Positions 7,952 to 59,500 of a DNA stretch of 64,000 bases are shown here, piece after piece; position 1 is the first letter of the stretch; the number at the start of each line of letters is the position of its first letter. The translations under genes were made by a program, and so were the position numbers. The DNA is taken from positions 34,844,001 through 34,908,000 of the forward strand of contig OZ024757.1 of the NCBI GenBank assembly GCA_964016885.1, read 5' to 3'. The DNA comes from Eledone cirrhosa. Lineage: Eukaryota. The notes below the pieces were generated by a model. That model saw only the letters and a list, made by a program, of their open reading frames with translations. It did no database searches and had not been told where the DNA came from.

Positions 7952-8004
<53 letters not shown>

Positions 8005-20181: not shown

Positions 20182-22792
20182 AACACACTTTTAAATTTGG
20201 TATATAATTATCATGCAATATACACCTGATGTCACAGGTTCATACGTAACCTGACCACTGAAATGTGCATAGTGTTTTCAGAAATAAAAATTTGATGAAA
20301 TCCAAACTGTCCAGCCTCCTATCATTTTACTCTATAATATACATATATATAAATATATATATATATGGAAACAACTGATGACTCACTCCTTCCCCACTGA
20401 AAATGGTCCCATCACATGACTGGAACAAATGACAATACATAGCAAGAGAATGTAGTCCAGCATATATGGAAAATGGACAGGTTGGACATGTTTAGAGCGT
20501 CTTAGTTCATAGTTGTACTTAATCACAACTGAACTGGGCCTAAATAGGAACTACAAAAATAGTTGATGCATCTCTCTCTCTATATATATATATATATATC
20601 CGGGAACTTCCAACAGTAATGGTTGCATCCTTTAAGGGTATGTCAATATTTATTTATAAAACTGCTCTATATTATATTTTATCTGATGAAAGCACACCAT
20701 AATTTAACTTGGTGTCCTTGAAATATGTATAATGAAATAAATATGGTTTTATAAATATAGTTTCCATTTGTTAATATCGTATTTTTACTCCAATTATTTG
20801 TTGAGTGCTTTATATCAGTTATAAAAATATTTTCTTGTTGCATCTCAACAATTTAAATAGAACGTTTACATATATATATATATACATATATATACATATA
20901 TAGAAGTGGTTACACAACAGTTAGTTCACCATACCGAGAACAATTGTTTCACCTTAGCGGATGTTCACTTCGTAATGGACATGGTTATTTGTTATGTTAT
21001 TCTACTGTAAATTTATATACTTTTTTTTACAAATATAGAATGAAAGTGTAGACAAATAATTGTTTCTATTTTAGGCACAAGGCCAGCAATTATCCAGTGC
21101 ATTACTGGTACTTTATTTTATCGACCCCGTAAGGATGAAAGGCAAAGTCAACCTCGGCGGGATTTGAACTCAGATCGTAAAGGGACGTAACTATGCTGGA
21201 AAGCATGGCGTCCGACCCTCTACCGATAGACAAATAATATATACAATACTTAATGAATATTATTTTATTAAATCTAAATGTTTGTCATCCGCTCGCTCCT
21301 CCCAATTTTGGTAAATTTTTACCGTTAAACCAGTCTCGCTTTAGAAGTGAAATTTATATTTTCGCTATGGTTTTTTAATGTTTTGGAGAAATATATTCTT
21401 CAAAACTGTGGGAGATAACTAGAAGAGTGAGGGACGCCCACAACTTTTTTTTTTTTACAGACTTTATATATGAGGGTAGGGGTATTTTAATCTTTTAAAG
21501 AGCTTGGATCCTTAAATAGACTTAATACAGCCCATGAACACATGTACCCTTAACAATTTTTCAGAGTGAGTCCGCGTGACACAATAAGGGGGTGGTCTGA
21601 AAAGTTCATTGGCTAACTACGAAGGAGTGATGCTAGTGCTGTGAAATTTTGCATGGATTAATTTCAATTAATAATTGGACTGTTTCTTTCCAGGGACTAT
21701 GCTGAAAAATAAACATCATTTGGTCATGCCATGAGAGTACCTTGGTTAGTCTATGAACCTTTCAGCCGACCCTCGTATATTGAATGAGTGATTAACAAAA
21801 ACATAGCTTTATACCATCGTATCAAAATTTAATGCTTCCGTTACCATATTCCTAATAAAAGACAGCATATAATTTCTAAATAATTTTGAAAATAATAAAG
21901 AATTTGGAGGGGTTTAGTAATAAATACAAAGTATATAAATTTCACATTATAAAGCTGGTGTTAGGAACATAACAAACAATTTTTTTCTCCCCTTTTACGT
22001 AGAATTAAATTTATAAACCGTTTCAAACAATCAGTTTGTTACCGTAGGACTTGGTGTGGCTTCAGGTGCTTTAAATAATTAAATTGATGTACACAACATA
22101 ACTTAACAAAGGTGCTTACATAGAATTACGATCGAAAGTTTTTAGACAAATATAAACACTTTAATTTCGTTTTCGTTTTATATTTCTTTGCGTAATATTC
22201 ATGTAGCATTGGATAATTTTGAGTAATATTTATGTAATAAATGTTTAATGTATATATTGTTTGTGTATATTTTCAATCTATAAAAACAATCAATTCGATA
22301 TTTGTTCAGTCAAAGAGCTTTGTGTTATAAAACAAAGGGGCGATGTTTCTATCAAAGGGTTTAAGCGAGGGTCAGCTTAAGAGGTCATAGTCTGACTATG
22401 AAGGAATGATGTTAGAGCTGTGAAATCTTGTATGCATTAATTTCAACTCTTCTCATTAATATCTGCATTGTTTCTTTCCAGGGACTATGTTGAAAAATAT
22501 ACCGCATTTGATCATTCCATGAGAATATTTTAGCCTATGAACATTTTATCCGACCCACGTACATGTCAAATAATTATCGCTATAAATATAGTACACCAAA
22601 ACATACAATCAAAGCTAAAAATAAAAAGGGGGTGGCGTTAAATATATAAGTATTAAGGAAGGAATATTGGTGAAGAAGTGTTAAAATAATATGAATTACC
22701 TGGACGATAGTGTCAGCCTCAGGGGCTGGGCCATAGCTGAGGGTGTCAAAAATGTTTTGGGTTTGATACAGAGTACTACCGTTAGACGACAT
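422..22792 (-). CDS. ALDH16A1: ALDH16A1-like aldehyde dehydrogenase (ALDH16 family), multi-exon, 3' part continues beyond the left window edge
   Basis: Coding exons in transcription order: 22792-22700, 16547-16445, 15813-15687, 14664-14486, 12834-12572, 10862-10710, 9732-9535, 8251-8153, 6746-6504, 3351-3194, 1155-985, 626-422. All introns are GT-AG and phases join (1992 nt, 664 aa). Motifs: [58 protein letters not shown] second partial ALDH domain ([16 protein letters not shown]...[12 protein letters not shown]) and the N-terminal LSYGPAPE are typical of ALDH16. Confidence 0.93.
985..1155 (-). CDS. ALDH16A1: ALDH16A1-like coding exon 11 ([17 protein letters not shown]...[10 protein letters not shown])
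   Basis: CAG acceptor, GTATG donor, phase 2 to 2. Confidence 0.93.
2126..2500 (+). mobile_element. tRNA-derived SINE family A with LINE-derived tail
   Basis: A box TGGCTTAGTGG, B box GAGTTCAATTC, central ccttgagcaagacacttt, tail ending (GAT)n; copies at 6868-7196, 17258-17430, 29385-29531 (-), 33920-34207; tail copies at 19695-19950, 55860-56130, 60050-60325 and many others. Confidence 0.85.
2565..2780. mobile_element. piggyBac-type MITE (about 210 bp)
   Basis: TTAA-CCCTTTAGCATTT...AAATGTTAAAGGG-TTAA; further copies at 1677-1904, 26010-26457 (with internal 73-bp tandem expansion), 40283-40490, 43025-43236, 59481-59708. Confidence 0.8.
3194..3351 (-). CDS. ALDH16A1: ALDH16A1-like coding exon 10 ([10 protein letters not shown]... 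linker)
   Basis: TAG acceptor, GTAGG donor, phase 0 to 2; GLYEY follows GGKE as in other ALDHs. Confidence 0.88.
4893..6545. repeat. 82-bp minisatellite built from the 3' end and splice donor of ALDH16 exon 9
   Basis: AAGTCTTACC recurs every 82 bp from 5183 to 6495 (17 copies), with about 3 degenerate copies back to 4893. Confidence 0.95.
6504..6746 (-). CDS. ALDH16A1: ALDH16A1-like coding exon 9 (IFGPV...[10 protein letters not shown])
   Basis: CAG acceptor, GTAAGA donor, 243 nt. Confidence 0.95.
7586..7748. mobile_element. MITE-like element with about 30-bp terminal inverted repeats
   Basis: tatacatatatgtgttcaaatcataagggacc ... ggtcccttatgatttgaacacatatatgtata. Confidence 0.65.
8153..8251 (-). 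CDS. ALDH16A1: ALDH16A1-like coding exon 8 (VYQP...FYLPTLIT...EEE)
   Basis: CAG acceptor, GTAAT donor, 99 nt. Confidence 0.92.
8463..8700. repeat. 35-bp minisatellite
   Basis: ctactgttatatggttgtaatatatatatactcct, about 6.5 copies. Confidence 0.9.
9535..9732 (-). CDS. ALDH16A1: ALDH16A1-like coding exon 7 (VCCAGS...EGAD)
   Basis: CAG acceptor, GTAAG donor; catalytic Cys motif. Confidence 0.95.
9866..10228 (+). mobile_element. LINE ORF2 internal fragment (pre-RT region)
   Basis: [15 protein letters not shown]...[17 protein letters not shown]. Confidence 0.8.
10710..10862 (-). CDS. ALDH16A1: ALDH16A1-like coding exon 6 (VGQKLR...LELGGKSP...FNQGQ)
   Basis: TAG acceptor, GTAAG donor; general-base Glu motif. 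Confidence 0.95.
10951..11493. mobile_element. pogo/Tigger-like MITE with a nested SINE
   Basis: terminal inverted repeats TACCATATTTGCC / GGCAAATATGGTA; SINE at about 11105-11305 inside. Confidence 0.65.
11960..12470. repeat. (CAC/CAT)n degenerate trinucleotide microsatellite
   Basis: direct inspection. Confidence 0.9.
12572..12834 (-). CDS. ALDH16A1: ALDH16A1-like coding exon 5 (GIVPWNFP...FTGSTN)
   Basis: CAG acceptor, GTGAGT donor; NAD-binding motifs. Confidence 0.95.
12868..14230. repeat. (TA/TG)n compound microsatellite followed by (CA)n and (GAT)n tracts
   Basis: direct inspection; source of spurious Y/I/C/V-rich ORFs. Confidence 0.9.
14486..14664 (-). CDS. ALDH16A1: ALDH16A1-like coding exon 4 (IARNIQKH...LESMDNGKP...WKPL)
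   Basis: CAG acceptor, GTAAG donor, phase 2 to 1. Confidence 0.92.
15687..15813 (-). CDS. ALDH16A1: ALDH16A1-like coding exon 3 ([10 protein letters not shown]...RARYLY)
   Basis: TAG acceptor, GTAAG donor, phase 1 to 2. Confidence 0.9.
16445..16547 (-). CDS. ALDH16A1: ALDH16A1-like coding exon 2 ([18 protein letters not shown]...NPST)
   Basis: CAG acceptor, GT donor, phase 0 to 1. Confidence 0.9.
16640..17220 (+). mobile_element. RTE-type LINE 3' fragment, decayed
   Basis: [29 protein letters not shown]. Confidence 0.85.
18490..19095 (-). mobile_element. RTE-BovB-like LINE 3' fragment
   Basis: minus strand [36 protein letters not shown] and C2H2-like [17 protein letters not shown]. Confidence 0.75.
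20675..20739 (+). ncRNA. Type I hammerhead ribozyme motif, same family
   Basis: CTGATGA-aagc-acacca..tggtgt-cctt-GAAA-tatgta-TA-atgaaata; stem II sequence differs from the other copies but stays paired. Confidence 0.7.
22700..22792 (-). CDS. ALDH16A1: ALDH16A1-like coding exon 1 ([31 protein letters not shown])
   Basis: ATG at 22792, donor GTAATT, phase 0. Confidence 0.85.
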
Positions 22793-23399: not shown

Positions 23400-25690
23400 T
23401 TAGGAAGAATTAAAGAGCTCAAATGTAGCGAGGCCGCTGGGGTGGATCAAATTCGGCCTGAGATGTTAAAAGCCTTAAAGTGAGAAAGTATTCTCTAGCT
23501 GACTCATGTGTGCTGGGCGGCCTGGATCAGCGTGGTTTTTGTCCTAAATGCAGATCTTTGAGAAATCGTGGGAGTACTGCGAAGAGATATATGCTTGCTT
23601 CATAGACCTTGAAAAGACATATGACAGCATTCCACAAGGACTAGTGTGGAAGCTTCTGTAGGAATATGGGATCAAAGGACAGCTTCTTGTTGCCCAATTG
23701 TTCCTATATGAATGCCCTAGTATTTGTGTTCGGATAAATGGTACTAAATCAAAACCATTCAATGTGGTAGTCAGACTCTGCCAAGGATGTGTACTGTCAC
23801 ATCTTCTGTTCATAATCTTCATGAACGGGATTGACATGTGCAACCAGGTTGGAAGTGGTATCACAATTGGTGGAGGTAGGATCAGTCAGCTGGAATAGAA
23901 AGATGACATGGTATTACTTAACTCATCACAAGGGGAGCCACTACTTCTCCAAATTGAGAGATCACAGCTCCAGTACTACAGTCAAGTGGACAGAATATCT
24001 AAGGAAAGAATCACTGGACAGATTTTGCAGGTAAAGTCAACCGGTGGGAGTTCCAGTGGTAGACCATGAACAAGATGGTTGGATAACATCCATGATCTAA
24101 CGCTCATAGCTGAATCAATGACCGAACTAGAGAAGAAATTCCAAACATGGAAGCACGGCCTAGAATCAAAAGGCCTTAAAATTAACCTGGCTAAGACTAA
24201 AGTTCTAGTTTGTAGGAAAGAAAATAAGGCGGCAGTCCCATCTGGGAAATGGCCATGCTCAGTGTGTAGGAAAGGCGTAGGTAGAAACTCCATTTTATGT
24301 CCCAAATGCAAAGTATGGGTGCATAAAAGATGTAGTGGGATCACAGGTAAGCTAACTAAGAACATAGATTTTACATGTGGCCGGTGCTCTGGTGCAATAA
24401 GTAGCAGCAAGTGCCCACAAAATACTAGCTCCTTCAACTGCGCAGAGGGTTCTATAGAAATAGTGGACAGCTTCCGTTACCTGGGTGACAAAATCAGCAG
24501 TGGGGGAGGGTGCTCTGAAAGTACAGTAGCTAGAGTCAGAACTGGATGGAAAAAGTTCAGAGAGCTTATACCACTATTAGCCGCTAGAGGGTTCTCCCTA
24601 AAAATGAAAGGCAGGTTATACGATGCCTGCATACGAACAGCAATGCTGCATGGCAGTGAGACCTGGGCATTGTGTGCAGAGGATATACACAGACTAGAGA
24701 GGAACGAAGCTTGCATGCTCCGCTGGATGTGCAATAGTAATATACGTGAACGGCAAAGCATAAACGAACTAAGGAAAAAATTAGAAATAAGAGGGATCAG
24801 ATGTTGTTTACTCGAGAGAAGGCTACGTTGGTACGGTCACGTGATGCGCATGAAAGACGACAGCTGTATAACAAAGTGCAGGGCAATAAAGATAGACGGT
24901 AGCCACGGAGTAGGCAGACCCAGAAAAACATGGGACGAGCTGATAAATTCCGACCTCACACGCTTACACCTCTCCAAGACAATGTCACTGGACCGAGACC
25001 TTTGGCGGTACTCAGTAATAGAGAAGACCCGCCTTACCTAAATACAAAGTAAAAACCTACTACAGTCAGTAGGCATCTCTATCAAAACACCCCCCGGTCC
25101 CACCACCTCCACCCCATCCACACCGCCCCTTTCAATGTAAAGTTATGTTGGTCCCACAACATCCAGGCCGAAACAAATGAGATCGTGTAGATGTCACGAC
25201 AAAAAAACACACAGTCCACGCTGTAAATGTGGCCGTGTAGGCAACACGGTAAAAACCTCCCAGCCCCACACTGTAAATGTGGTTGGTGTTAGGAAGGGCA
25301 TCCAGCTGTAGAAAACCCGCCAGACAGTCCACGCTGTAATGTGGCCGTGTAGGCAACATGGTAAAAACCTCCCAGCCCCACACTGTAAATGTGGTTGGTG
25401 TTAGGAAGGGCATCCAACTGTAGAAAACCCGCCAGACAGTCCTATGCGAGCAAGACAACCACTCTTGCCTCAAGTGGGAAAACCCCCGTCCAAACCCATG
25501 CAAGCGTGGAACACGGACGCTAAACCTGATGATGATGATGATGATGATGATGAGCTCAGTTGGTCTGTCTTGCTTGGGCATCAAACTGGATCAATTGGAA
25601 ATGGTTGCTTCTGACTAGACCCACTGGAAGGAATGTTTGAGGACTCTGCCCCTATGATACTCCTAGGAATAAGTGGGCAAAGAAGAAGAT
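23400..25690 (+). mobile_element. Older, internally deleted RTE-type LINE fragment interrupted by the element above
   Basis: ACFIDLEKTYD and QGCVLSHLLFIIFM RT motifs with stops; the sequence GGATAACATCCATGA resumes as GCTCAGTTGG at about 25554, as in the uninterrupted copy at 3943-3970. Confidence 0.8.
24091..25550 (+). mobile_element. 5'-truncated RTE/RTEX-type LINE with open ORF2 C-terminus (RT end, PHD-like finger), 3' UTR and (TGA)n tail
   Basis: ORF 24079-25041: [58 protein letters not shown]; tail (GAT)n at 25528-25553. Confidence 0.9.
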
Positions 25691-31680: not shown

Positions 31681-32682
31681 AAATATGGAGAAAAATACTG
31701 CAGGTAGCGCATGGATAACATGTAATAAAATGAGTCCCTCATCAGTGATTTGCCGACGATCATAGATATTTCATTGCATTAAAAATCATATACCTCACGT
31801 CGGTGCAATAATAATATATATATATATATAATACATTAACAGAGAAAGCCTTAAGTGATACTCTGACCAACTCCATCTCACTCAACAAACATTAGGATAT
31901 ACCTAAGTATTATCCCAATTCAGTGTTTGGGGTGCTAACTATATAGTATTTCGTGGATAAGCTGGTTGTATTATTTTATATGAGACATTATTAAATAAAT
32001 ATCTCTTTCCTTCCAGACGATCGTTTCGTTATAAGATTTCTACAATTTCTGGGATAAATAATGTCCAGGTTATGTAGAAACTTGTATATAATCCATAGTT
32101 TTATACACAAGCGGGCTCTTATAAACTCATCAGTGGATGCCCAATATATATATATATATATATATATACAATGATATTAAATAAATGGAAACTATATTTA
32201 TAAAACCATATTTATTCTATTATATATATTTCAAGGGTACCAAAAATGTTGGTACACTATCATCAGATAAAATACGAAGTGTGTTTTATAAATTTTGACA
32301 TAACCAAGGATAATATACCTTAATGGTTCAAGTTATCTCTGGAAAGTGAAGGGATAAGAGAAGAAAAGTAAGATATTTCAAATTATTAAGATGAGTATGC
32401 AAATACAAATGTATGCAAATCATTTTATGTCCGCTTTTCCCTGCTTGCAAGGGTTTATACACACACACACGCGCACGCACACACACACACACATATATAT
32501 ACAGCAATCACTGTAAATGAGGTTGGTGTTAGGAAGGGCATCCAGCTGTAGAAATCAACCCAAAATCAGTTCCCGTATGAGCAGGACAAGGTCACCCAAC
32601 CTAACATTGCCCACAACAGGACAACCCGTCTAACCCATGCTAGCGTGGAATAATGGACATAAAACGGTGATGATGATGATGA

Positions 32683-32748
<66 letters not shown>

Positions 32749-35232
32749 GGTGTCCCCAAAAATGTATACACACTTCAACAGCATTCTAATAAATATTGCC
32801 TGTACAGGTAATCAAAGTATGTATATATATTTTTTCGTGACACAATGTGATGTATATATATATTATTATCACCATTTAACATCTATTACATTATCCATAC
32901 TAGCATGGATATATACCATCATCATCGTTTAACGTCTGCTTTCCATGCTAGCAATAGTGTGGTGTATATATAATGTTTGTGTATATAAAATCTGGTATAT
33001 ATAATATGTTGTGATGTTTTTTTTTTCCAGGTTTCTGTATCAAATTAAAAGATGAAGAAGATAAGAAAGTGTTCATAAACATCTGTCAATCGGACAATGT
33101 AGGTATACTGCTATCTAGGACTACATTATCTAATGATGTATCCATCTTTGTTGTTGCTTAGCCCCATGTAATATCATACACCTTTCATATATTTCCTAAA
33201 ATCTATCTTTTGTAATTTCCAGAGATCTTCCACACTCAATGTCCATATTTCACAGCCACGTAATATCATGTACCTTTCATATATTTCATATATCTCCTCA
33301 GCTCTTCCACATTAAATGTCTATATTTCACAGCCATGTAATATCACACACCTTACATATCTTTCATACAATATACCCTCTATTATATCACCTTACATATA
33401 TTTCATAAAAATCTTTCGTCTGAAATCTCCAGAGGTCTTCCATACTCAATGTCCATATTTCTCAGCCATGTAATATTACACAGTTTACATACTTTTCATG
33501 CAATTTACCCTCTATTATATCACACCTTACATATATTTCATACAATATGCAGACCTCACCACCATATTCTCCCCTTTGATTTATCTTCTTCTCCTTTACT
33601 CATCCCCAAACATGTTTTTCTTGGTCTTCTTCCACATTCATTTCTATCACCCCTCTCACTCAGTCACTTTCATCCTTCTTCAACACATGACCCATATTGT
33701 ATCTTGCTTATGTTCTCACATTCTCTACTGGGTGGTCAAGGAGTGAAGGTGACCCATATCTTGCTTACAAAACATTCCCATGCTCTTCCGAGTGCATTTT
33801 ATCACTGCACCAACACTAGGGATGTTGTCATATCTTTGACACAGCTGAAGAATACTGTGTTTGGCAAGTTTTCTACAGTTGGATACCCTCTCTAACATCA
33901 ACCACTTTACAAAGTATATGCAATCGAAAGGTTGTGAGTTCAATTCTCAGACCGGGTGATGTGTTGTTTCCTTGAGCAAGACACTTTACTCCAGTTTACT
34001 CAGCTGTAGAAATGAGATGATAGGACTGGGGTCCCTATCATTCCACTGTAGAGTGGTCGTGGAGGTGCCACGGCAAAAAAGCACCCAGCACTTACTGTAA
34101 ATGAGGTTGGTGTTAGCAAAGGCATCCAGCTGTAGAAATCAAGCCAGAATCAGTTCTCGTCCCACCATTGCAAGCAGGGAAAAGCGGACGTAAAATGATG
34201 ATGATGATTAGGCAGCAGAGTCATTAGAATGTCAGATAGAATGCTTTGTGATATTTGTTCTGGCTCTCTTCTCTCTGAGTTCAAACCCTCGAAGGTTAAC
34301 TTTGCCTTTCATTCTATCGAAGTCAACAAAAATAGTACCAGTCTAATACTGGGGTCGATTCTTCCTCTATATCTCTTCCTCACTTCCATTCTCTCACTCT
34401 ATCCTTCTCTGGAAGAAATCTACTGTGTTTAGACTTGGAGAAGGGATGGGCTCCACCAAGTTTAAAATTGCCCTAGACATGTTGTATGTCGATATAGTGC
34501 CTCTACAACTCCATCAAGAGTTACAGGTCCATACATACAATGGTCAGCTGGAAAGTTCATAAGCTGATCAAGATACTCTCATGGAATGACCAAATGAGGT
34601 TTATTTTTCAACATAGTCCTTGGAAAGAAACAATGCAGTTATTAATAAGAAGAGTTGAAATTAATGCTTGCAAGATTTCACTGCTCTAGCATCACTCCAT
34701 CATAATCAGCCTATGAACTTGTCAACCTTCCCTCATACAACACTAACGTTATTTTTTCTATTGGTGTTTTAGGTTCCAGAGCCAGAAGAAATATCTGATG
34801 AGAAGTTAATGGAACTGCTTAAGTCAGAAATTCAAACAGATTACAGAATACCAATGAGTTTAGGAGAACCACACCCGGAACTTGATAAAAGTAACTTAAT
34901 TTCATTATCTATTTCTTAATGGGCGGTGAATTGGCAGTATCGGTAGAGGGTCGGACGCCATGCTTTGACACATAGTGTTATGGCCCTTGCCATTCTGAGT
35001 TCAAATCCCGCCAAGGTTTACTTTGCCTTTCATCCTTACGGGGTTGATAAAATAAAGTACCAGTAATGTACTGGGTAATTGCTGGCCTTGTGCCAATAGT
35101 AGAAACAATTATCTATTTCTTTATAAGGGTAGTGGCTTTCGTTCTGACTCTCTGCTCTCTCAGTTAAAATCCTATCAAGGAGGTTAACTCTGCCTTATAT
35201 TCTTTCGAGGTTGATAAATAAAGTACCAGACC

Positions 35233-35294
<62 letters not shown>

Positions 35295-35490
35295 TTAATA
35301 TAGAGGAGATTCTACAGGACTAGAACTGTTTCATTCTTTAGAAATCATCAGGAATCTGGATTCCTGATGATTTCTAAAGAATGAAACAGTTCTAGTCCTG
35401 TAGAATCTCATCTATATTAAAACTTTTATACTCTGCAATGTATTGAGTACATTACTTACTGTGGTTACCTCCGATTCAACCCAGAATAAC

Positions 35491-35551
<61 letters not shown>

Positions 35552-36178
35552 AATGGAAGTTCAGTAGAATCAAAGCTTTGGCTGCAGCTATGTTAACGAA
35601 TGCAATCGGAATGTGCAGCTAAGCACTCAATAAGGTAGTTTTACCTTAGAGTAACAACATTATGTTTAGACAGCTTGACAAATGGAAGACTGCGACCGGT
35701 AAGCCAGCCGCAAGGACCAAACCAACTCAGGATAATTTGACAAACCTGGACCATCCCGTCGATATTAAGCAATATCTCCGGTAGGTTTCTGTGAATCCGA
35801 AATCAACAAATCCACTTGCGGGGTATGCAAGTTATTGGTGTTGGAAGATCGAACAGAGGGTTCACTTTCTCAACAAGTTTCCGTTCAATGCCGCTGTCCT
35901 TTGTGAGTTATAGCAGTAAGACTGCCGGCGGTCACGTGGTTTTCCCAAAGGGAGGTAACCGCCGGTTTTGGCGGTCGAAATTCAAATTTTGAACAAAGGA
36001 ATAAATTCCTTTCCACAAACCGAATAAAGCTCTCGATATATATATATATAGTTTGATTCCTGCACCACCCACAAGATTCAACATGAAAGATGGATGAGTT
36101 ACGTAACGTTGAGTGCTTTCCATTATGGTTAACTATACTATACGGAATGACCAGTTCTATCCAGTGGTGAACCACTAA

Positions 36179-36224
<46 letters not shown>

Positions 36225-36574
36225 TGTGTGTATGTATGTATATAATTATATATATATATATATATATATATAAATACATATGACCAAAGTTTATATGGTT
36301 CGTTGATTATTCAACGAATACAATTTTACAATAGATTAGAAATACTCGACACTATTGGAATTGAATAATCAAAACCGTAGCGGTATGTCACATATCCAAT
36401 CTTATATTTTGTCTGATGAAAACGTACTGAAACACCATTGTACCTTTGAAATATGTAGAATAAAATATATATTTTGGTTATGAGAATATTTTTCATTTAT
36501 TAATATTTTGAATAATATTATATATCATCATCATCATCATTTTACGTCCGCCCTTCCCTGCTTATGTATATATA

Positions 36575-36619
<45 letters not shown>

Positions 36620-39600
36620 GGCATATGGCTGAGTTGTTAGAGAATTGGATTCACAATCGTGAGGTTGTGAGTTCGATTCCCAGAGCGGGTGATGCGTTAT
36701 GTCCTTGAGCAAGACACTTTATTTCACGTTGCTCCTTCTACCTGGAGTTGCGACCAATAGATAGTATTAGCAACTGGAAAGACCAATGGAAACATTGTTT
36801 CCTCGGTCCGATTTGACGAAAGTCGATCTTGAAAATAACTATATATATCCTCTCGTTCCATTCTATTTAGGTGGGCAAGCCTGTATAGTGTATGATATTG
36901 TTATCAATCCAAAGTTTTTTGAGAAGATCCAGATCAATGAGTTGTTCCGGGTTTTCCTGGTGTCGATATCTCTGGAAGGTTTAGAGGAGAAATACAAACT
37001 CAACATAAAACGGGGTAAGTAAATCAACTGATTTGTTTGACCCTTTTAGTATTTTATTGGGTTTTGAGTGAGGAGGACCTTTGTGCTAGAACACTGGTTC
37101 CCAAACCTTTCTAGTAAAAGTATATTGGTATAATTTAGAACTAGTAAATGTATATTGGTATATTTTAGAACTAGTAAAGGTATATTGGTATATTTTAGAA
37201 CTAGTAACAGTATATTGGTGTAATTTAGAACTAGTAAAGGTATATTGGTATAATTTAGAACTAGTAAATGTATATTGGTATATTTTAGAACTAGTAAATG
37301 TATATTGGTATAATTTAGAACTAGTAACAGTATATTGGTATAATTTAGAACTAGTAACAGTATATTGGTATAATTTAGAACTAGTAAAGATATATTGGTA
37401 TATTTTAGAACTAATAAAGGTATATTGGTGTATTTTAGAACTAGTAGAGGTATATTGGTGTATTTTAGAACTAGTAAAGGTATATTGGTATATTTTAGAA
37501 CTAGTAAAGGTATATTGGTATATTTTAGAACTAGTAAAGGTATATTGGTATATTTTAGAACTAGTAACAGTATATTGGTATAATTTAGAACTAGTAAAGG
37601 TATATTGGTATATTTTAGAACTAGTAAAGGTATATTGGTATATTTTAGAACTAGTAAAGGTATATTGGTATATTTTAGAACTAGTAACAGTATATTGGTA
37701 TAATTTAGAACTAGTAAAGGTATATTGGTATATTTTAGAACTAGTAAAGGTATATTGGTATATTTTAGAACTAGTAAAGGTATATTGGTATATTTTAGAA
37801 CTAGTAAAGGTATATTGGTATAATTTAGAACTAGTAAAGGTATATTGGTATATTTTAGAACTAGTAAAGGTATATTGGTATATTTTAGAACTAGTAAAGG
37901 TATATTGGTATAATTCAGAACTAGTAAAGGTATATTGGTATATTTTAGAACTAGTATAGAACCAGTAAATTAAAAAGTATCAACATTAGAAAAGACTAAT
38001 GGAAATATTGTTCCCTGGGTTCAATCAGACAATCGACTCCTTTCTTTTTTCAGGAATTGCTGACCAGCAACTAGTATTAGCAATGGAAAGACCAATGGAA
38101 ACTATGTTTCCTTGGATTGATCTGATGATCAGCTCCTTTCTCTGCTAGGAATTGTGACTGGAAGATAACATCAGCAATAGAAAGGACCAATGGACTCATT
38201 GTTTCCTGGGTTTGATCTGATAATCTGTTCCTTTTTTCTGCCAGGTGTTGCTAATCAGTATCAGCAATGGAAAGACTAATGGAAACTATTATGCTTCCTT
38301 GGTCTGATCTGATAATCAGCTCTTTGGCTTATTTGAATTTTTTTTCTTCAGATTCTTGGGTGATACTGAAAAACAAGAAGTTTATGGGAAGTATAGCACC
38401 ACAGAACATTCGAAATAAACCCAAATCTCTGATTAGTGAAGTTGCTGGGTAAGTGATATTTTTTCTTTTTATCATCATCATCATCACCATTTAATGTCCA
38501 TTTTTCCATGCTAGCATGGGGTAGACAAGTTGTCCCGTTGTAAGACAAGCCAGACCAGGTAACCATGTCTTGCTCATAAAAAACTGTTTCTGGCAGGTTT
38601 CTACAACTGGATACCCTTCTTAACACCAACCACATTTACAGGGTGGACTGGTCGCCTTTTATCGTGGCCGCAACATGACTGACAGGATGGATTGGGCGCT
38701 TTTTGTTGTGACACCTACACAACCACTTTATAGGGTGGACTGGGTGCTTTTTGTTGTGACACCTACATGGCCACTTTACAGGGTGGACTGGGAGCTTTTT
38801 GTCATGTCACCAACACAATCACTTTACAATGTTGACAGTGCTTTTTATGGCAGCACCAAAACAACTGCTTTAGAGTGTGGACTGGGTTCTTGGCACTTCA
38901 CAGAATATACTGGGTGCATTTTATCGGGGCAACAGCTCTACCGTTTTACTGAGTGTACTGGGTGCATTTTATCACTGCAACAGCTCTACCACTTTACAGA
39001 GTATACTGGACGCGTTTTATCATCGCAACAACACAACCACTAAGTTAATTGTTATTTTCACCTTACCTTTGTAATTATCTGCCAACTTTTGTTAATCACA
39101 GGTCTGAAGGTATAGAAGAATTTGAGACCAATGCCTCACTGCCCACCAAAACCCCTACACCATTGATCCAGGAGATCTCCAGCCACACAGTTAAACACAT
39201 GTACGTAATACAGGATTAACACCTATTGTCATTATCAATTAATTTATGAAGAATTTTGAAGGATTTTCTAAAATTATTTCATTACTAAGATAATAACAAA
39301 ACATATGGTTCTTATAAACAATCATGTTGGGAGATTTTAATTTCACTTTCATAGAACCAGAACTGGTTTAATGAAGAATTTTGAAGGATTTACTAAAATT
39401 ATTAATTATTTCATTACTTAAGATATTAACTTAACATATAGTTCTTATATGAAATTGTTAGAAGATTTTAATCTAAAAAGGAACTCTTTTAAATGGGTAG
39501 TTTTGTTTCATAGTCGTGAGGTTGCATGTTCGATTCCAAGACCAGTTGATGTTATGTCCTTGAACAAGACACTTTATTTCACGTTGCTCTTTCTGCCAGG

Positions 39601-47240: not shown

Positions 47241-49063
47241 GACATTCATAAAAACACATACAATAACAGCAAGATAAGCATTTTAAAGCCATTTTCTCAA
47301 CTAAAGCAATGACTAATCTTACAGGATTCATATAATCCTAAAGTAATAGTAATAATTGTTTCTACTTTTGGCACAAGGCCAGCGATTATCCCAGTGTATT
47401 ACTGGTACTTTATTTTATCGACCCCCGTAAGGATTTGAACTTTGAACATAAAGGGCCGTAACTCTATGCTGCAAAGAATCGTGTCTGACGCTCTACCGAT
47501 ACTGCTAATCCATTGCCCTTAATAGTAATAATGGTTTCTGATTTAGGCACAAAACCAAACATTTGGCGGGAGGAGGGAAAGTCAATTAAATTAACCCCAG
47601 TGCATTACTGGTACTTTATTTTATCAACTCAGTAAGGATGAAAAGCGAAGCTAATCTCGGTGAGATTTGAACTCAGACTATAAAGTGACATAACTCTATG
47701 CTGCAAAGCATGTTGTCCGACGCTCTACCAACACTGCCAATCCACCCCCCCTATAATAAATCTATATGTGTGCCTGCGTGTGTTTCATCATCATCATTAT
47801 CGTTTAAAGTCTATCTTCCACGCTAGCATAAGTTAGATGGGAATTGTCCCACTTGAGGCAAGATGGATTGGGTGACCGTGTCTCGTATAGGACTGTTTAT
47901 ATTCTGTAAATTAGCAATTTCACAAGAAAAAGAAAAAAAAAGATAAAATAATTGCCAGGCAAGAAAAAATAAGTATAGAGTCGATGTGATCAAAAATATT
48001 TGGTGACTCAACATGTTCACAATCCTATGACAGAAACCAGTAAAAACAGAAAAAAAGGGGGTTTTACCTGATTGCTTCTCTGACTTGCTGTCGTTTCCTG
48101 TCCAAGTCAATAATCTGTTGCTTATTGGCAAGGATTTGTTCAGCTACCTCTTCTATCTCGCACAATCCACGCTCGATCTTGTCAGTGGCCATCATCAGAG
48201 ATCTGCAAGGCACCAACAGGAAAGAAACTGCAATGACAAATGTTCCAATTAATAATTTAACTCTTTCATTGCCATATTTCTACTGAAACACACTGCCTAT
48301 GTTTTTTAAATATGATTTGAAAATAAGAATTTAAAGGGATTAGTACAACAAATTTTCTTATTAAGCTCATGTTTCGAATACAGTAAAAGTCCATACATGA
48401 AATTATGATGGAAGGGTTTTAGATTAATATAAACATATTAACCTTTTCATGACCATATTTTTAATGGAAAACACTACTTGAAGTTCTTCAATATATTTTG
48501 AATATAATTAAGAGTTTGGAAGGATTTAGAAATATAACAAACTTTCTCATTATTGAGGTGGTCTTTTGAACATAACTTAATAAAGGTTCTTACATAAATT
48601 TCTTTTTTAGATAAATATTAACACTTTAAAACAGTTTCCTATTGTTAGAATCAAGTGATATTTTAGGTGGCTTGGTTAACAAAAGGGGTTAAACTTCCCT
48701 CGGGGAAAAAAACTAGTAAAAATAAAGCCTTTTGTTTAGAGAAACAACACGAAACCTGATCCAGGAGTCGAACTCCGGACAATTCGATCGTGGCAAATAA
48801 TTTGAAGAGCTCCCCTCAAATACTTATGGCTGTTAACTTTAAAATACCAAAATTTCGAGTTCTGTAAAGATCTCTTCATTGTTTAAATTCTTAATTTTTA
48901 ACGGTTCAATGTCAATTGAAATCTCATATAAATTCAACATTCTCAAAATTCAATATTTGTCATTTATTTTCATGCCTGGTAGCTGGTTTAGACACGCGAG
49001 TAATAATGTATATATACGGTACTTTGAAAACAATGTGGTTTTATGTCGCTCCCTTCTCGCTGA

Positions 49064-49160
<97 letters not shown>

Positions 49161-49916
49161 GAAGGAAATGTGGTAAGGAACCAGATGGACCATAACGCAC
49201 CAAAGTACTCAATACTTAAAGTAGTAGAGTGGGTAATAGGAACAAGTATGACTCCGACGGCAGAGCTCAAGCCGTTTCGACGGCTAATTCTGGACTCTCT
49301 CTCTCTCTCTATATATATATATAGATATGGTTATGAATCTTGGATAATGACCGAAAGAATAGGATAGCGGCTGAAATGGGGCTCCCCCGAAGGATTTTCG
49401 GAGTAACGTTACTCGATAGAGTGTGTAGCTCGGGGATAAGAGTCACTCCAGGTAGAGCCACTATAATAATAATAATAATTGTTTCTACTTTTGGCACAAG
49501 GCCAGCAATTATCCAGTACATTACTGGTACTTTATTTTATCGACCCCGTAAGGATGAAAGACATAGTTAACCTCGGCGGGATTTGAACTCAAATCCCGTC
49601 GAATAATAATACAATATAATATAAATTACTTATGAAATCTAATCTTTCTTTTCATTTTGTTATATATACATACATATATTATTTAGAAAGAGATCTGTTC
49701 TATACATAGAGCACTCTTTTTTTTCCTTCGGAATTATCTAACACACATATCTATATAAACAAACCTTTTCTAACAGTGGGTGGCATGAGACACGGCTCAC
49801 ATTAACGCCGGCCGGACTACTTCAAAACAATTCAAAGTAATGTTTCGTTAGACATACCAAACGGGGTCACAGTTTTCTCACGACTGATTTAAAATTTCAA
49901 AATAATCCACCATCAT
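45212..49916 (-). CDS. PDRG1: p53 and DNA damage-regulated protein 1 (prefoldin-like PAQosome subunit)
   Basis: Exons 49916-49882 (tentative), 48202-48068, 46465-46365, 45369-45212. Protein EIEEVAEQILANKQQIIDLDRKRQQVREAIR..WVCMSNMFFKMP..ILEKDYDKLDVEINSLRKTLK..LKGFDLKPLSDKE matches the PDRG1 pattern. The start may instead be the ATG at 48195 (128 aa). Confidence 0.9.
46365..46465 (-). CDS. PDRG1: PDRG1 exon 3
   Basis: AAG acceptor, GTGAGT donor; WVCMSNMFFKMP. Confidence 0.9.
48068..48202 (-). CDS. PDRG1: PDRG1 exon 2 (contains ATGATG at 48195)
   Basis: GCAG acceptor, GTAAAA donor. Confidence 0.9.
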
Positions 49917-50462
49917 TTCTCGTTCGACGCCTGCAATTGTTTGTGACACGAGGTATTATGGAGTATTATGGAGTTATGTCCCCATTGTGAAGGAACTTTC
50001 TCATGGCGGAGTGAAAGTTAGTCACACCACATTTGTTGGTCAATTACGTTTCCTAGCAATAATTAATTGATATTTATTTGATTTTATATATTTGTTATAT
50101 GACAATAACATTTATTTTAAGTATCCCCCACCTTCCAAATGTTTCTAATCACGACCACAGCTGTTTTACTGGTATTGGCAGAATCAGTAGAGCATCGGGA
50201 AAATGCTTCGTAGCAATTAATTACGACCTTTTACGCCCTGAGTTCGATACCCGCCAAGGTTAGCTTTGCTATTCATCCTAACAAGGTCGATAAAATAAAG
50301 TATCTGTAACGCACGGGAGTTGATTTAATCGACTTTCCTCTCCTCCCCCTCAAAATTGTTGGCCTTGTACCTAAATCAGAATTCCCTAGTGTTTTATGTT
50401 TTTTTTTTTTTTTATATATCAATGATATTAATAAATGGAAACTATATTTATAAAACCATATT

Positions 50463-50527
50463 TATTTTATTATATATATTTCAAGGGTAACCAAGACAAC
50501 ATTGGTACGCTTTCATCAGATAAAATA
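50463..50527 (-). ncRNA. Type I hammerhead ribozyme motif (intact core)
   Basis: tattttat-CTGATGA-[aagcgtaccaa..ttggttaccctt]-GAAA-tatata-TA-ataaaata: 8-bp stem I, stem II, palindromic stem III, AUA cleavage triplet. Confidence 0.75.
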
Positions 50528-50560
50528 CAAAGTTTGTTTTATAAATAGAGACAAACTTTG

Positions 50561-50625
50561 TATTTTATCTGATGAAAGCGTATCAATACTGTCTTGGTTA
50601 CCTTTGAAATATATATAATAAAATA
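50561..50625 (+). ncRNA. Type I hammerhead ribozyme motif (intact core), inverted partner of the previous copy
   Basis: tattttat-CTGATGA-aagcgtatcaa..ttggttaccttt-GAAA-tatata-TA-ataaaata. Confidence 0.72.
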
Positions 50626-50913
50626 AATATGGTTTTATAAATATAGTTTCCATTTATTTAATATCATTGAATATTTACTCCAGTAAATTGTTGAGTGCTC
50701 TAAATCAGTTATAAACATTTATGTTTGTCGGACTTCCAACAAATTAAATACCACTTTTACTTATATATATATATACTCATATATATAGCAAAGGATTTCT
50801 GCTTCCACCCTAATCTGAGACTACACACACACACACTCTCTCTGTCTCTCTCTCTCTCTATATATATATATACTCTAATACGTAGATATTACGATGTCGG
50901 ACTGTTAAGTATC

Positions 50914-50927
50914 GTTGCCATAGCTAC
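50914..50927. promoter_or_regulatory. RFX X-box-like motif upstream of the TEX47-like gene
   Basis: GTTGCCATAGCTAC, 1-2 mismatches to GTTGCCATRGCAAC, about 70 bp before the ATG; a second X-box-like GTTTCCTAGCAAT at 50048-50060. Confidence 0.5.
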
Positions 50928-50995
50928 CTAACACCAGTTCCTTCTCTTCCCAACTTCCACCATTAAACACACAAACAAATCTGTATGTGGAGGCC

Positions 50996-51073
50996 ATGTC
51001 GACTCTGGAATTAACCGACCTGGAAAACAGACGATCTTTATATGAGATTGAGAGGAGTAAATTTGGGGAAGGA
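50996..51073 (+). CDS. TEX47: TEX47-like exon 1
   Basis: GCCATGT Kozak-like context, GTAAGT donor, phase 0; the frame stays open upstream to about 50924. Confidence 0.72.
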
Positions 51074-52452
51074 GTAAGTATATAAAACAGCATTACTTTA
51101 ACTAACATCCATACTAAATACGACAACTCTATATAGCCTGCAACCCCTTCATCCAGCAGCCTTAGAGAGTCCTACAACTTCTTGGTGGGGCAACTCCCAA
51201 GGCCCTGCAAATATCATAGTCCGGCAACTCCCAAGATCCATTAAATCCTATAGTTCGGCAGCCTTTGAGTGTTGTGTATGTATGTATGTATGTGTGTATG
51301 TTTGTGTGTTGTGTGTGTATGGATATGTGTGTGTTGTGTATGTGTGTTATGTATGCTTTGTGTGCTATATACGTGTGTGTTGTGTATGTATGTTGTGTGT
51401 GCTATATACTTGTGTGTTGTATACGTTTGTGATATATACGCATGTGTGTTGTGTACATGTATTGTGTATATGTGTTGTATGTTGTGTATGTATGTATTAT
51501 ATACGTGTGTGTATGTATTATATAGATGTGTGTTACCAGTCCACCACTACCTTCACCACCTCCCAACCTATACCACCACCACCACTACCATTGATACTCC
51601 AATGATACAATCCGGGGCAATGTGGGAGAATAGTTTTAAGTATGAAGGACCCAATTAAAGGGAGGCAACTCATCATCCTTTATCTGTTGATTTATTTATT
51701 TAATTATTCATAATTGTTTCTACTATTGGCACAAGGCCAGCAATTATCGCAGTGTATTACTGGTACTTTATTTTATCGACCCCGTAAGGATGAAAGTCAA
51801 AGTTAACCTCGGCGGAATTTGAACTCAGAATGGCAAGGGCCGTAACTCTATGCATCAAAGCATGGCGTCCCACCCTCTACCGATACTGCCAATCCACCGC
51901 CCTTTTGAAATAAAATAATGGTTTTCTTTTATTTTATTTCAAAATACTCCAATATATTCCTAGGATAAAATTACATGGAAATAATGAAGAATTTAATATT
52001 TAGACAAATGCCATAAATGAGAGGAAAAAGATGAGAAAAACAAGAATTATTAGGCGACAAAAGGGTGGTTGATTGGCAATATCGGTAGAGCGTCGGACAA
52101 TATGCATAGAGTTACGGCCCTTTACACTCTGAGTTCAAATTCTATCGAGGTTAGGTTTGTCTTTCATCCTTACGGGGTGGATAGAATAAAATACCCAGTG
52201 CCAGATTTAACATTGTGCTTAGGTATGCTTAACCACAGGGCCCTGTTGGCCAAGTGGGGTAGGGGAGCCCATCTTCCTGCCAAAACATTTTTTTTCAATG
52301 AATTTGTCAAATGTTTTTTTCAAATGTCAGGGCCCGGGTAAGGGGCCTAATTTTTCCTTAATCCAACACTGAAAGTGCTAGTAATGCATATGTGTTTATG
52401 TGTATATATATATGTATATGTATGTATGTGTATATATATATGTATGTGTGTT

Positions 52453-52493
<41 letters not shown>

Positions 52494-53526
52494 TAGATTG
52501 AGTTATAAACTCAAAATAGTCTTTTACAATTAAATAGCTTGTGTAATATAATTGGATATATGAGAGGGATGAACACAGATATAATTATACATGTGGTCCA
52601 ATTGCAAATGACCAAGTTAGCTGTTTCACAAGAATTATTAAGTGAAAGCCGGAATTCCTGTGTGCGAAACAGATTTTGGGTCTGTCCGGGTATCAAAGGC
52701 TATTGCCCGATATAGGTTTGTTATTTTTATTAATTTACTAGCAGATGTACCCGGCGTTGCTCAGGAAATGAATGACAGCCTGAATTGTTCAAGGTCGTTT
52801 ATGGCTTAGCTAGCAATTTCTGAGTGCATGTCAGCTTATGTCAGCTAATTGGCTAGCCAATGAGAGGTCGCCTCAATAGCACGTGCAAATCGGCCTAGTA
52901 CTTCAAAAGTTTAAAGGAGCCTAGTATTTGTACACAGACAGAGAGAAACACACACACAGACCGACTTGCTTTTATATATATAGATTACTTTAAATCGAGA
53001 CAGGCAAACCATATTGTTTTAAATTAGTATTTTTCAACCTAGCTAATTTGGTCATTTGCAATTGGAACACATGTATACTTGTATCAGTGTTCATCTCTCT
53101 CATATATCCAATTATATATATATATATATATAGTATTAAGGATACTATTTATGGTTATGTATATACTAAAACTTTTTATAGTTATATATATTTTAAACCC
53201 TAAACAGTAAAAGACAGTAATTTATTACTGACTAACAAACTATCCTCTTGCATTATCTTCGTAAACTGCCGATGTTGTATTTTAACTTTAATTTTGTTTT
53301 AATATGATTTTAATTTTTGAATTTAAATTGCCATGCAAAAATATTATAATGGATGTCAGCCCACTGTGCATCGATATATACATATGTTTCTGTATGTCTC
53401 GTGTGTTGGAAAGGAGGTCATGTATGTAAACAATCATTGAAAAATTGCTCCGAAGACTCCAAACCTTGGTTTGGACGAAACAATTGTAAGCTAATAAATG
53501 ATTTGAACAGAACTTTGATTCATGTG

Positions 53527-56500: not shown

Positions 56501-59500
56501 GAAGAAGTCCAGCGATCTATGTTTACACTTCAAGTTCAAATCAGCGACTGGCCAGCAACACGTGCTGTATCTACTAGAAATACACACATCATACCAGCTT
56601 CGTCACAGTGGCGTGAATAGGGTTATCGACAACTAGAAACAGCAGTCAAATCCTTTCAACAGAGTTAGCTCTACAATTAAGGGGCGGTATTTATATATAT
56701 ATATAAATGAAAGGATTACAAAGGAGAATATATACTGTCAGAACATGTTTATATAAAAGCACCTACGTACGTTTTGCCCGAAAAGGGCTTCTCAAGTGCA
56801 TAGAAAACTACACAGTGTTCAGTACAGTACCCAGAAGGAGTTTTAAAATGATACATACATCAAAGTTCATTCTTAGTTCAAACCTACACGTTGTTATTAA
56901 CACAGAGCAAGGTGAGTAACTCTGGCCAGTGTCTGAATAATTGTCCCCAAAGGGCTTATTACCCGTTCACATGATGGTGGTTTTCCATTACTAATTTGTG
57001 GGTACTACTTTACTATTGTCAATTCAGGCAGGCGTCTGAGATGCATAGTTGGTGTACAGATGTTTATTTGCGCAGCCTACCCACTGGAGTGTTATGGTTT
57101 GGTGCAGGGGGACCCAGTTTATGGTTTTCAGGTCTCTGTCCTTTTCCATCCGAAGAAATTGGGCTGTCCAGAATTAGCCGTCGAAACGGCTTGAGCTCAG
57201 CCGTCGGGGTCCTACTCGTTCCTATTATATATATGTGAATACAGTGAAGGAGGCAGAGGATTTGATGCGGGAGGTTGAGACTGTGTCGATGAGTGTGGGG
57301 CTGAGAATGAATGAGACTAAAACAAAATATCTGGTAGAGAATGTTGAGAAGCCAGAGGGGATCACTAATGTAGGCGGGAGGCCGCTGGAATTGGTTGAGG
57401 ACTTCCTGTATTTGGGAGCAAAGATTGGGAATACGGAAGATGATGTGGTTGGGAGGAAGAGCAAGGCCTGGGCGGCGTGCTACAGCTTGAGATCGGTGTG
57501 GAAGTCGGACCTTCATAGAGACCTGAAAATCCGCCTCTTCATTGCTGTAGTGGAGTCTGTGCTGCTGTATGGGTCTGAGACTTGGACACTGACCAAGAAA
57601 CTCACTCAGATGTGGATGGGTGCTACACAAGAATGCTGAGGATGGCTCTGAACATTAATCAGTATACACTGAGGATGAAAAACTCAGAGCTGTATGGGAG
57701 CATCTCAAAAGTCAGCTCAAAAGTGACACAGAGGAGACTGAGGTTGGCTGGACATGCTCACCGACATCCAGAGTTGACATTGCACTCAGTGCTCCTGTGG
57801 GAGCCCCTACATGGACACACTAGAAGAGGAAGACCAAGGTTAACGTATGTTGATGCCCTAAGGACAGACACTGGTCTGTTGGAGATGCAGGACATGGCAG
57901 CGATAATGAGGGACAGAGACCGCTGGAGAGAACTCGTCCATGGATCTCGGGAATTTTACCCGCCTTAGAGATATATATATAGAGAGAGAGAGAGTGAGTG
58001 AGATAGAGAGATAAGTTGATAAATAGATAATATATGGATGTGAATGCAATCACACACATGTACACATACAGACACACACACACCCACATGTGATATTGAA
58101 CAACTGTCCGGATATTTTACCCTCCTTAACCACCATTTTGAAAAGGTTACTCGCTTGTTTAGACAGATGCATTTCTGTCTATTGGATATTCATTCTCAGA
58201 ACATGGAGGTGTTTGAAAGTCTGGAGCCCCTCGAGAAACTGCAGCTTGATCTCATCCAACAGATCCTCGTTCTCAGCACCCACCTAAACCAACAAATTAA
58301 AGTAAGTTTGCCTCTTTTACATATGTATCATCACCATCACCACCATCATCGCCAACTTCATCACCATCACCACCATCATCGCCAACTCCATCATCACAAT
58401 CATCACCATCATCATCATCATCATATATAAGCTGAGTATCAATCTTTTTGCAGGGTGACTTCCAGAAAGTTCTTGAAACCCTAAGTACCAAAAACCCAAC
58501 ATTACTGCCACAACAAGGTAAACCTCATTGGTAGGGCATCTTTATTACCAACTAGGTGCAGACCTAAACGAGGGGCATTATTGAACCTGAAAAGAAAAAT
58601 CACATGTTTATACAGGTCTGGTGATACTCTTAAGGTCAACTAGGGGCGGTGGATTGGCATTACTGAATCTTAAAGGATCACAGTTTTATATAGGGCTAGT
58701 GATATTATTAAGGTCAACTAGGCAGTTACCTAGGGTACAGACTTTAGAGAGGGATATTACTGAATCTTAAAGGATCACAGTCTTATATATAGGGCTGGTG
58801 CTCCTATTAAGGTCAACTAGGCAGCCATCTAGGGCAAAATTTTGAATATTTTAAAAATTAATTAAGAATGATAGATTGTTTCTCATTAGAACTATGGTAA
58901 CAAGAAAGTTGAAGTGTTTATTATCACTGTTTAACATCCAATTTTTAGTCCAGCATGGATTAGATGACTGTGTCTAGTACAGAACTGTTTCTGGCTTGGT
59001 TTCTACAGCTGGAAACCCTAGTGCCAACCACATTCCCAGTATGGACCAGGTGCTTTTTATCGTGGCACCAAAACGACCAAAAACCTTCCATCATAATTTT
59101 ATGTTAAATCCTTTGTTAAGATATGTTCCAAACACCTTCTTAAAAATGACAAAGTTATAATACTAAATACCTACAAATTTTTTATTATTTTTAAAATGAA
59201 TTACGAGAGTCGGCTGAAAAGTTCATACGCTGAAATGAAAAGGTCATAAGCTGACCAAGATACTCTCATGGAATGACCAAATGAGATTTATTTTTCAACA
59301 TACTTCCTGGAAAGAAACAATGCAGTTATTAATAAGAGTTGAAATTAATGCATGCAGAATTTCACAGCTTTAGCATCACTCCTTCATAGTCAGCCTATGA
59401 ACCTTTCAGCCCACCCTCATAAGAATGATAGGCAGTGGTTTTCATTAGAAATATGGTAACAAAAGGGACAGTATTGCTCATTAACCCTTTAGCATTTCCA

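Follow-up and report, generated by a model that had tools for sequence, protein, structure and literature searches.

The locus and its flanking genes

The feature analysed here is a palindrome between two divergent genes in the window, the whole 64-kb stretch of Eledone cirrhosa DNA under study. One neighbour is TEX47, as the initial annotation had it: its exon matches Pfam PF24787 (E 5e-12) and is 86% identical to proteins of Octopus vulgaris and Argonauta hians. The other had been named PDRG1, a name to which prefoldin-like Atlas leads, all below 0.9, lend weak support, but on which Pfam, PDB and homologue searches came back blank; it is kept here as our assumption, from motif similarity. 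The first exons of the two genes are placed as follows.

49858..49970, minus strand: PDRG1-like gene, predicted first exon (non-coding); context, outside the insertion; upstream end approximate
50881..51073, plus strand: TEX47 first exon, covered extent; ATG at about 50997, donor GT at 51074

Run X4, whose kind is not recorded, behaves like RNA, because its 914-nt TEX47 contig, aligned over 50881-51074 from contig base 35, departs from the genome at the GT donor where run X1 goes on. On the PDRG1 side, X4 depth falls from 29 at 49900-49945 through 16.5 at 49946-49991 to 0 at 49992-50037, and the gene's GT donor at 49857 is matched by an AG acceptor ahead of the ATG exon, the two presumably being joined by a splice. 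The contigs suggest that transcription starts near 49970 on the minus strand and 50850 on the plus strand, with the limits that contigs cannot prove a start and that the TEX47 contig begins inside a microsatellite. On these apparent starts the palindrome belongs to neither flanking mRNA and lies between them, at distances of about 450 bp (PDRG1 side) and 180 bp (TEX47 side).

Several other features of the window deserve mention. Upstream of the TEX47 ATG, positions 50914-50927 read GTTGCCATAGCTAC, which we take to resemble the RFX X-box of ciliary genes, and at 50950, in the 5' region of the same gene, X1 and X4 contigs alike show C>T and therefore carry an allele other than that of the assembly. 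A SINE-like repeat surrounds the two promoters in both orientations (49470-49591, 50203-50381, 51705-51863 and 52102-52195), with 51762-52195 forming an inverted pair. Elsewhere lie the exons of an aldehyde dehydrogenase gene (6483-9825, minus strand) and of a PIH1-domain gene (33015-37019, plus strand), the latter with a hammerhead copy at 36.4 kb between them. There are also two broken LINE-like reverse-transcriptase remnants, presumably RTE-like (23548-25041, with a PHD-type finger match, and 57178-57968), and a marginal tRNA match at 2132-2189 (31.2 bits against a gathering score of 29) that is possibly a SINE head.

A head-to-head repeat with a hammerhead motif in each arm

A repeat search places the arms at 50430-50537 and 50551-50658, 96% complementary with 13 nt between them, and folding together with alignment extends the palindrome to 50419-50670, with arms that are about 95% identical (six mismatches and one gap over 123 aligned columns). 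For the 301-nt region the predicted folding energy is -168.6 kcal/mol (z -29.8), a value reached by none of 100 shuffles. Repeat search, folding and alignment all confirm the inverted repeat of about 250 bp reported earlier at 50419..50670; that description was right on the arms and missed the 90-nt tail of the right copy and three other copies in the window. The whole unit measures 341 bp and is bracketed by TTATATAT. Its parts are listed below.

50412..50419, no strand: possible 8-bp target-site duplication TTATATAT, left; low complexity, weak
50420..50547, minus strand: left arm, a short 5'-truncated inverted copy of the end module, without tail; same end base as the copy at 32169
50463..50527, minus strand: minimal type-I hammerhead motif of the left arm; CUGAUGA 50519-50513, stem III 50479-50472, H17 50471
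50538..50550, no strand: head-to-head junction; contains the 8-nt palindrome TTTATAAA (50538-50545), part of the family sequence
50548..50670, plus strand: right arm, a 5'-truncated direct copy of the end module, by alignment
50561..50625, plus strand: minimal type-I hammerhead motif of the right arm; CUGAUGA 50569-50575, stem III 50609-50616, H17 50617
50671..50760, plus strand: tail of about 90 nt, absent from the left copy; the 20.7-kb copy has it too (80% over 105 nt, E 2e-21)
50761..50768, no strand: possible 8-bp target-site duplication TTATATAT, right; low complexity, weak

Both arms are 5'-truncated, since the family sequence runs on 5' of the junction, beyond 50547, in 52 contigs and in the solo copies. 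The truncation point falls about 13-20 nt before stem I, at the TTTATAAA palindrome. At its other end the left arm shares its last base with the 32169 copy and with 83 contigs, TA runs coming next, and the tails of the right copy and the 20.7-kb copy both finish in TTTAC followed by (TA)n. The two arms are each other's closest relatives (119/125, the best match of an arm to any other copy being 122/134) and have a lengthened stem II in common, which together argue for one template. The arm divergence of 5% suggests an age of a few million years (about 5-7), or more if the arms have been homogenised; the calibration quoted in PMC13282606 equates a JC distance of 0.09 with 25 My. No contig of the runs was seen to cross the head-to-head junction independently. 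Among the joints listed, none removes the whole unit to leave an empty site, and the flanks consist of a SINE-like repeat and a masked microsatellite. Opposite-strand joints in run X21 were put down to reads that fit both arms.

The core of a type-I hammerhead, CUGANGA...GAAA...UH, is complete in both arms. On the right, stem I pairs 50561-68 with 50618-25, a 30-nt stem II occupies 50576-50605, GAA lies at 50606-08 and stem III (50609-16) is the self-complementary AUAUAUAU, with A at H17. Helix I consists of 8 bp, all A-U, and helix II contains a conserved C-C mismatch. Pair 10.1-11.1 is A-U in four of the five family copies and U-U in one, the usual G-C being absent, and the motif lacks the extra base after A9. 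Helix III reads AUAUAUAU in three of the five and a central G-U wobble variant in two, one of which is also without U16.1. With a strict descriptor, three motifs are found in the window and none in any of 200 dinucleotide shuffles.

These results reproduce the motif as the initial annotation had drawn it, with 8-bp stem I, CUGAUGA, stem II and palindromic stem III in each arm, H17 at the cleavage sites proposed (50617 on the plus and 50471 on the minus strand) and cores pointing outward toward both genes. Its word "intact" holds for the sequence motif, whose core reads as complete on both strands. The covariance-model check that it had suggested turned out negative: the Rfam hammerhead models gave no match at E<=10 in 48000-53000 or with one arm alone, and none at gathering score in the whole window. 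We infer that this miss reflects a limit of the models for variants with a loop-less stem III and is not a refutation. Rfam matches to miRNA hairpins fell below gathering score (mir-944, 50.1 against 100 bits) and were set aside as hairpin artefacts.

Copies, abundance and structural conservation of the family

BLAST, nhmmer and a covariance model find five copies of the hammerhead-bearing repeat at four loci in the 64 kb. Besides the two arms there are solo copies, 75-91% identical to them.

20627..20869, plus strand: tailed solo copy of the family; its hammerhead core, at 20683, is intact and its stem II has two compensatory pairs
32169..32311, minus strand: solo family copy without tail, then (TA)n; U-U at 10.1-11.1
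36399..36514, plus strand: older solo copy of the family that has lost U16.1; its stem II has one compensatory pair

A sixth copy was not found in the window by the nhmmer profile or the covariance model, both built from the five copies. Four of the five end in TA runs. Homology far upstream of the solo copies is weak (23, 72 and 695 of 2000 shuffles reach as high), no coding frame in module or tail is kept across copies, and no ATG frame runs through the motif. The window has two further short-spacer palindromes, 35291-35424 (134 bp, 97%) and 19520-19624 (105 bp, 90%), which hammerhead family searches leave unmatched. The 80 loci returned by an 18-nt pattern scan of metagenome contigs aligned over 36 nt at most and were taken as chance.

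The family is very abundant. Summed contig depth in X1, which is no copy number, reaches 1.39M and 1.18M on the 3' bins of the arms against about 7 on the unique flanks, with 0.88M on the neighbouring SINE-like repeat. Scaling five copies per 64 kb to 2.8 Gb, the genome size implied by the O. vulgaris supplement of PMC13282606, gives about 2x10^5 copies (Poisson range about 0.7-5x10^5). Depth and copy scaling put the family size roughly in the order of 10^5. Past 50681 the depth drops from 1.18M to 0.23M, so tailed copies are a minority. Of the small-share runs from other organisms, X5 alone was used; it has family-like contigs at low depth and zero depth on the unique flanks.

Pairing in the stems is well kept. 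Over the five copies, 88 of 90 cells in helices I and II are paired and three pairs of stem II have changed on both sides, a covariation set of five related sequences whose structure was drawn from the same five. Only 13 of 500 shuffles attain this level of pairing, and slid controls are 38-60% paired. A common variant seen in 58 contigs combines C at N7, the free core position, with a perfectly paired, shorter stem II. Over 50605-50665, run X21 reveals a very abundant subfamily in which the C-C mismatch is retained and the stem II that follows it is of another sequence, yet fully paired (8958 RAD reads); the tail of this subfamily is like that of the 20.7-kb copy (8958 and 13284 reads). As far as five related sequences can tell, the hammerhead fold is probably under selection in the family.

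Predicted behaviour of RNA through the unit

Equilibrium folding, computed without tertiary contacts or protein, predicts that read-through RNA forms a hairpin of about 120 bp in which CUGAUGA is unpaired with P <=0.0008 on both strands; for plus-strand transcripts starting at 50500 or earlier, the predicted pairing of the core is unchanged. A crossing RNA makes the antisense arm first and is predicted to pair the whole catalytic core, and since the motifs lie on opposite strands they cannot dimerise in cis. In the same predictions stem I of a one-arm RNA has a pair probability of <=0.01 at 37 C, stems I and III contribute -2.4 and -3.2 kcal/mol at 37 C (at 15 C, -5.3 and -6.5), and from 15 to 37 C the hammerhead fold of the monomer is predicted to be 4-11 kcal/mol less stable than the MFE. 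The modelled motif would require a trans dimer held by the 8-bp A-U helix III (-3.2 kcal/mol at 37 C). The only route to ribozyme activity would be outward transcription from the centre with trans dimerisation; this and a cruciform effect on the divergent promoters are, even taken together, very unlikely.

Origin of the unit

The palindrome consists of two 5'-truncated copies of an abundant octopod repeat set head to head; it is likely a single insertion unit of a Penelope-like element (PLE), with ribozymes that are predicted to be silent here. The head-to-head copy, one-ended tail, (TA)n target, high-copy family and arm divergence of about 5% all support the young Penelope-like relic that had been proposed from the outset. 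A six-frame scan of the window for PLE-type RT and GIY-YIG motifs gave only the unspecific tripeptide FLD, and Pfam found no PLE protein remnant in 70 ORFs (picked from 182, mostly by nearness to the copies: a first 66, and further picks far from them). An RVT_1 match at 23662 was rejected as a PLE remnant, as it belongs to the LINE-like remnant, and so were the 32.2-kb and 36.4-kb copies as brackets of a PLE body, which have PIH1-domain exons between them. With no PLE ORF in the window, membership therefore rests on architecture, by analogy with which the module would be a pLTR. Truncated PLE copies normally come without the RT plus GIY-YIG ORF.

The insertion might have proceeded as follows. 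An RT/GIY-YIG partner encoded elsewhere would nick a (TA)n tract, and the end of the element would be reverse-transcribed from two defined starts, one giving the short end and the other the tail end. The inverted second copy would arise in the same event, by fold-back priming or a template switch at TTTATAAA, just upstream of the hammerhead. As part of the parent element the hammerhead would have been under structural selection, acting either as a dimer or together with the protein of the element. Here, any RNA that reads through the unit would form a duplex of about 120 bp, a Dicer/ADAR-type substrate instead of a ribozyme. Within the gap of about 900 bp between the two divergent promoters, the unit most likely sits as a neutral passenger, and the locus is most likely a transposon scar that adds no new mechanism.

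Other histories can be imagined for the same DNA. The hammerhead repeat could be a stand-alone, non-autonomous element, retrozyme- or SINE-like, with the palindrome arising from a later fold-back duplication during replication or repair. The window is without a PLE ORF and the module without a conserved reading frame, three of the four loci are solo copies, and animal retrozymes have been proposed as PLE derivatives (10.64898/2026.07.22.740005). However, the left arm ends precisely at the short end of the family (the 32169 copy and 83 contigs), not at random or in host flank, and none of the five copies stands in head-to-tail tandem, which also speaks against the term retrozyme as first applied here; such a stand-alone origin is unlikely. 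A MITE or foldback DNA transposon, or an assembly artefact of fold-back reads, could yield a near-perfect inverted repeat in a TA-rich target with no independent contig across the junction. Yet three of the four loci are single-armed and the outer ends are unequal by the 90-nt tail, at odds with a MITE, while a fold-back read would give neither the 7 differing columns in 123 between the arms nor the unrelated flanks. Hardly any probability remains for either.

It had been suggested that the two ribozymes cut any transcript crossing the region and so form a bidirectional RNA barrier or 5'-end processor, and both cores are indeed complete and face outward to the genes. Predicted pairing, however, hides the core on both strands (P unpaired <=0.0008), the A-U stems are weak, motifs on opposite strands have no cis dimer option and both mRNAs apparently begin outside the unit. 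A hammerhead cut, moreover, leaves an uncapped 5'-OH RNA. Published motifs of this kind do not cleave as monomers (PMC4209133) or depend on protein (PMC11167929), and the barrier suggestion is extremely improbable. The unit could instead be a co-opted cis-element of the divergent promoters, acting either as a cruciform that negative supercoiling extrudes or by transcription outward from the TATA-like palindrome at its centre, which would give two RNAs of the same sequence that dimerise through stem III and cleave. The apparent gene starts are about 450 bp and 180 bp away, its 79% A+T DNA folds into a hairpin of -111.2 kcal/mol, both arm cores are intact whereas two of the three solo copies have a core-adjacent defect, and bidirectional TATA motifs have been proposed for rotifer pLTRs (PMC3846280). 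Against this, arms only about 5% diverged would be expected to have intact cores anyway, transcription beginning about 30 nt beyond the central TATA would land within or after CUGAUGA, and in a one-arm RNA stem I hardly forms (probability <=0.01 at 37 C), with the hammerhead fold 4-11 kcal/mol above the MFE. Co-option is considered quite improbable. Equally little weight is given to its broadest form, in which about 10^5 structurally selected dimer-type hammerheads of one Penelope-derived family would exist in octopods and the pair found here would have been co-opted, as outward self-cleaving RNAs or as a cruciform, to tune PDRG1 and TEX47.

Significance and comparison with known systems

What is new under the preferred reading, a silent PLE insertion, is the octopod hammerhead family, which is apparently undescribed; the architecture of PLE insertion and opposite-strand hammerhead pairs, the latter in Schistosoma, were known already. 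In the literature covered, which leaves most subscription papers and Repbase/Dfam outside, no title on octopus hammerheads turned up, nor a report of minimal hammerheads from cephalopods; it may be that the family is among the repeats already annotated. In abundance this octopod hammerhead repeat is about on a par with the neighbouring SINE-like repeat. It puts thousands of natural variants on offer for covariation and cleavage tests, its helix II has a C-C mismatch and is closed by an unusual A-U pair, and its long tail maps two putative reverse-transcription start points. Head-to-head family units would supply long dsRNA. These animals are known for heavy A-to-I editing; an A>G excess from editing was not apparent in the contigs (A>G/T>C 19/24 in X1 and 21/18 in X4, in 79% A+T DNA).

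PLEs are abundant in a related octopod, where the supplement of PMC13282606 assigns them 6.83% of the O. vulgaris genome; ribozymes go unmentioned in the passages covered of its main text and supplement. Inverted pLTRs, head-to-head junction palindromes ascribed to self-priming, a one-sided tail and target-site duplications of 8-10 bp have been described for EN+ PLEs (PMC3846280), and Craig et al. 2021 (10.1101/2021.04.23.441226) give the same insertion scheme together with a (TA)n bias. PMC11167929 shows that the tail spans the distance from one RT start site to the other, and that the hammerhead of the anole PLE needs protein in order to cleave. The unit studied here resembles those of all three reports in its head-to-head copy, junction palindrome, one-ended tail, AT-rich/(TA)n target and possible 8-bp target-site duplication. 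It differs in having no ORF between the repeats, since it is truncated to the end module, and in a tail of about 90 nt where the published one measures 30-40 nt. In the anole element the ORF starts in stem II, whereas no ATG frame runs through the motif here.

Non-LTR retrozymes are likewise small, non-coding, A+T-rich repeats with a type-I hammerhead, and 10^5 copies are known for them (axolotl, up to 120,000). They form head-to-tail tandem arrays and circular RNA (PMC7229834; Li et al. 2026, 10.64898/2026.07.22.740005), unlike the present family, with no tandem among five copies and its pair head to head. A closer parallel in the motif itself is offered by the minimal dimer-type hammerheads (min-HHRs) of PLE pLTRs, mostly solo, whose monomers remain uncleaved and whose dimers cleave weakly; in S. 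mansoni, dual min-HHRs lie about 100-700 bp apart on opposite strands (PMC4209133). Type-I topology, a full core, a long helix II, a palindromic helix III, many solo copies and opposite-strand pairs are common to both. The octopod motif stands apart by A-U at 10.1-11.1 and by the missing extra base after A9 (G-C at that pair and the extra base being common in min-HHRs without being universal), by an 8-bp, all-A-U helix I and by the conserved C-C mismatch in helix II, and its estimated copy number exceeds the 2,000-9,000 quoted in that report.
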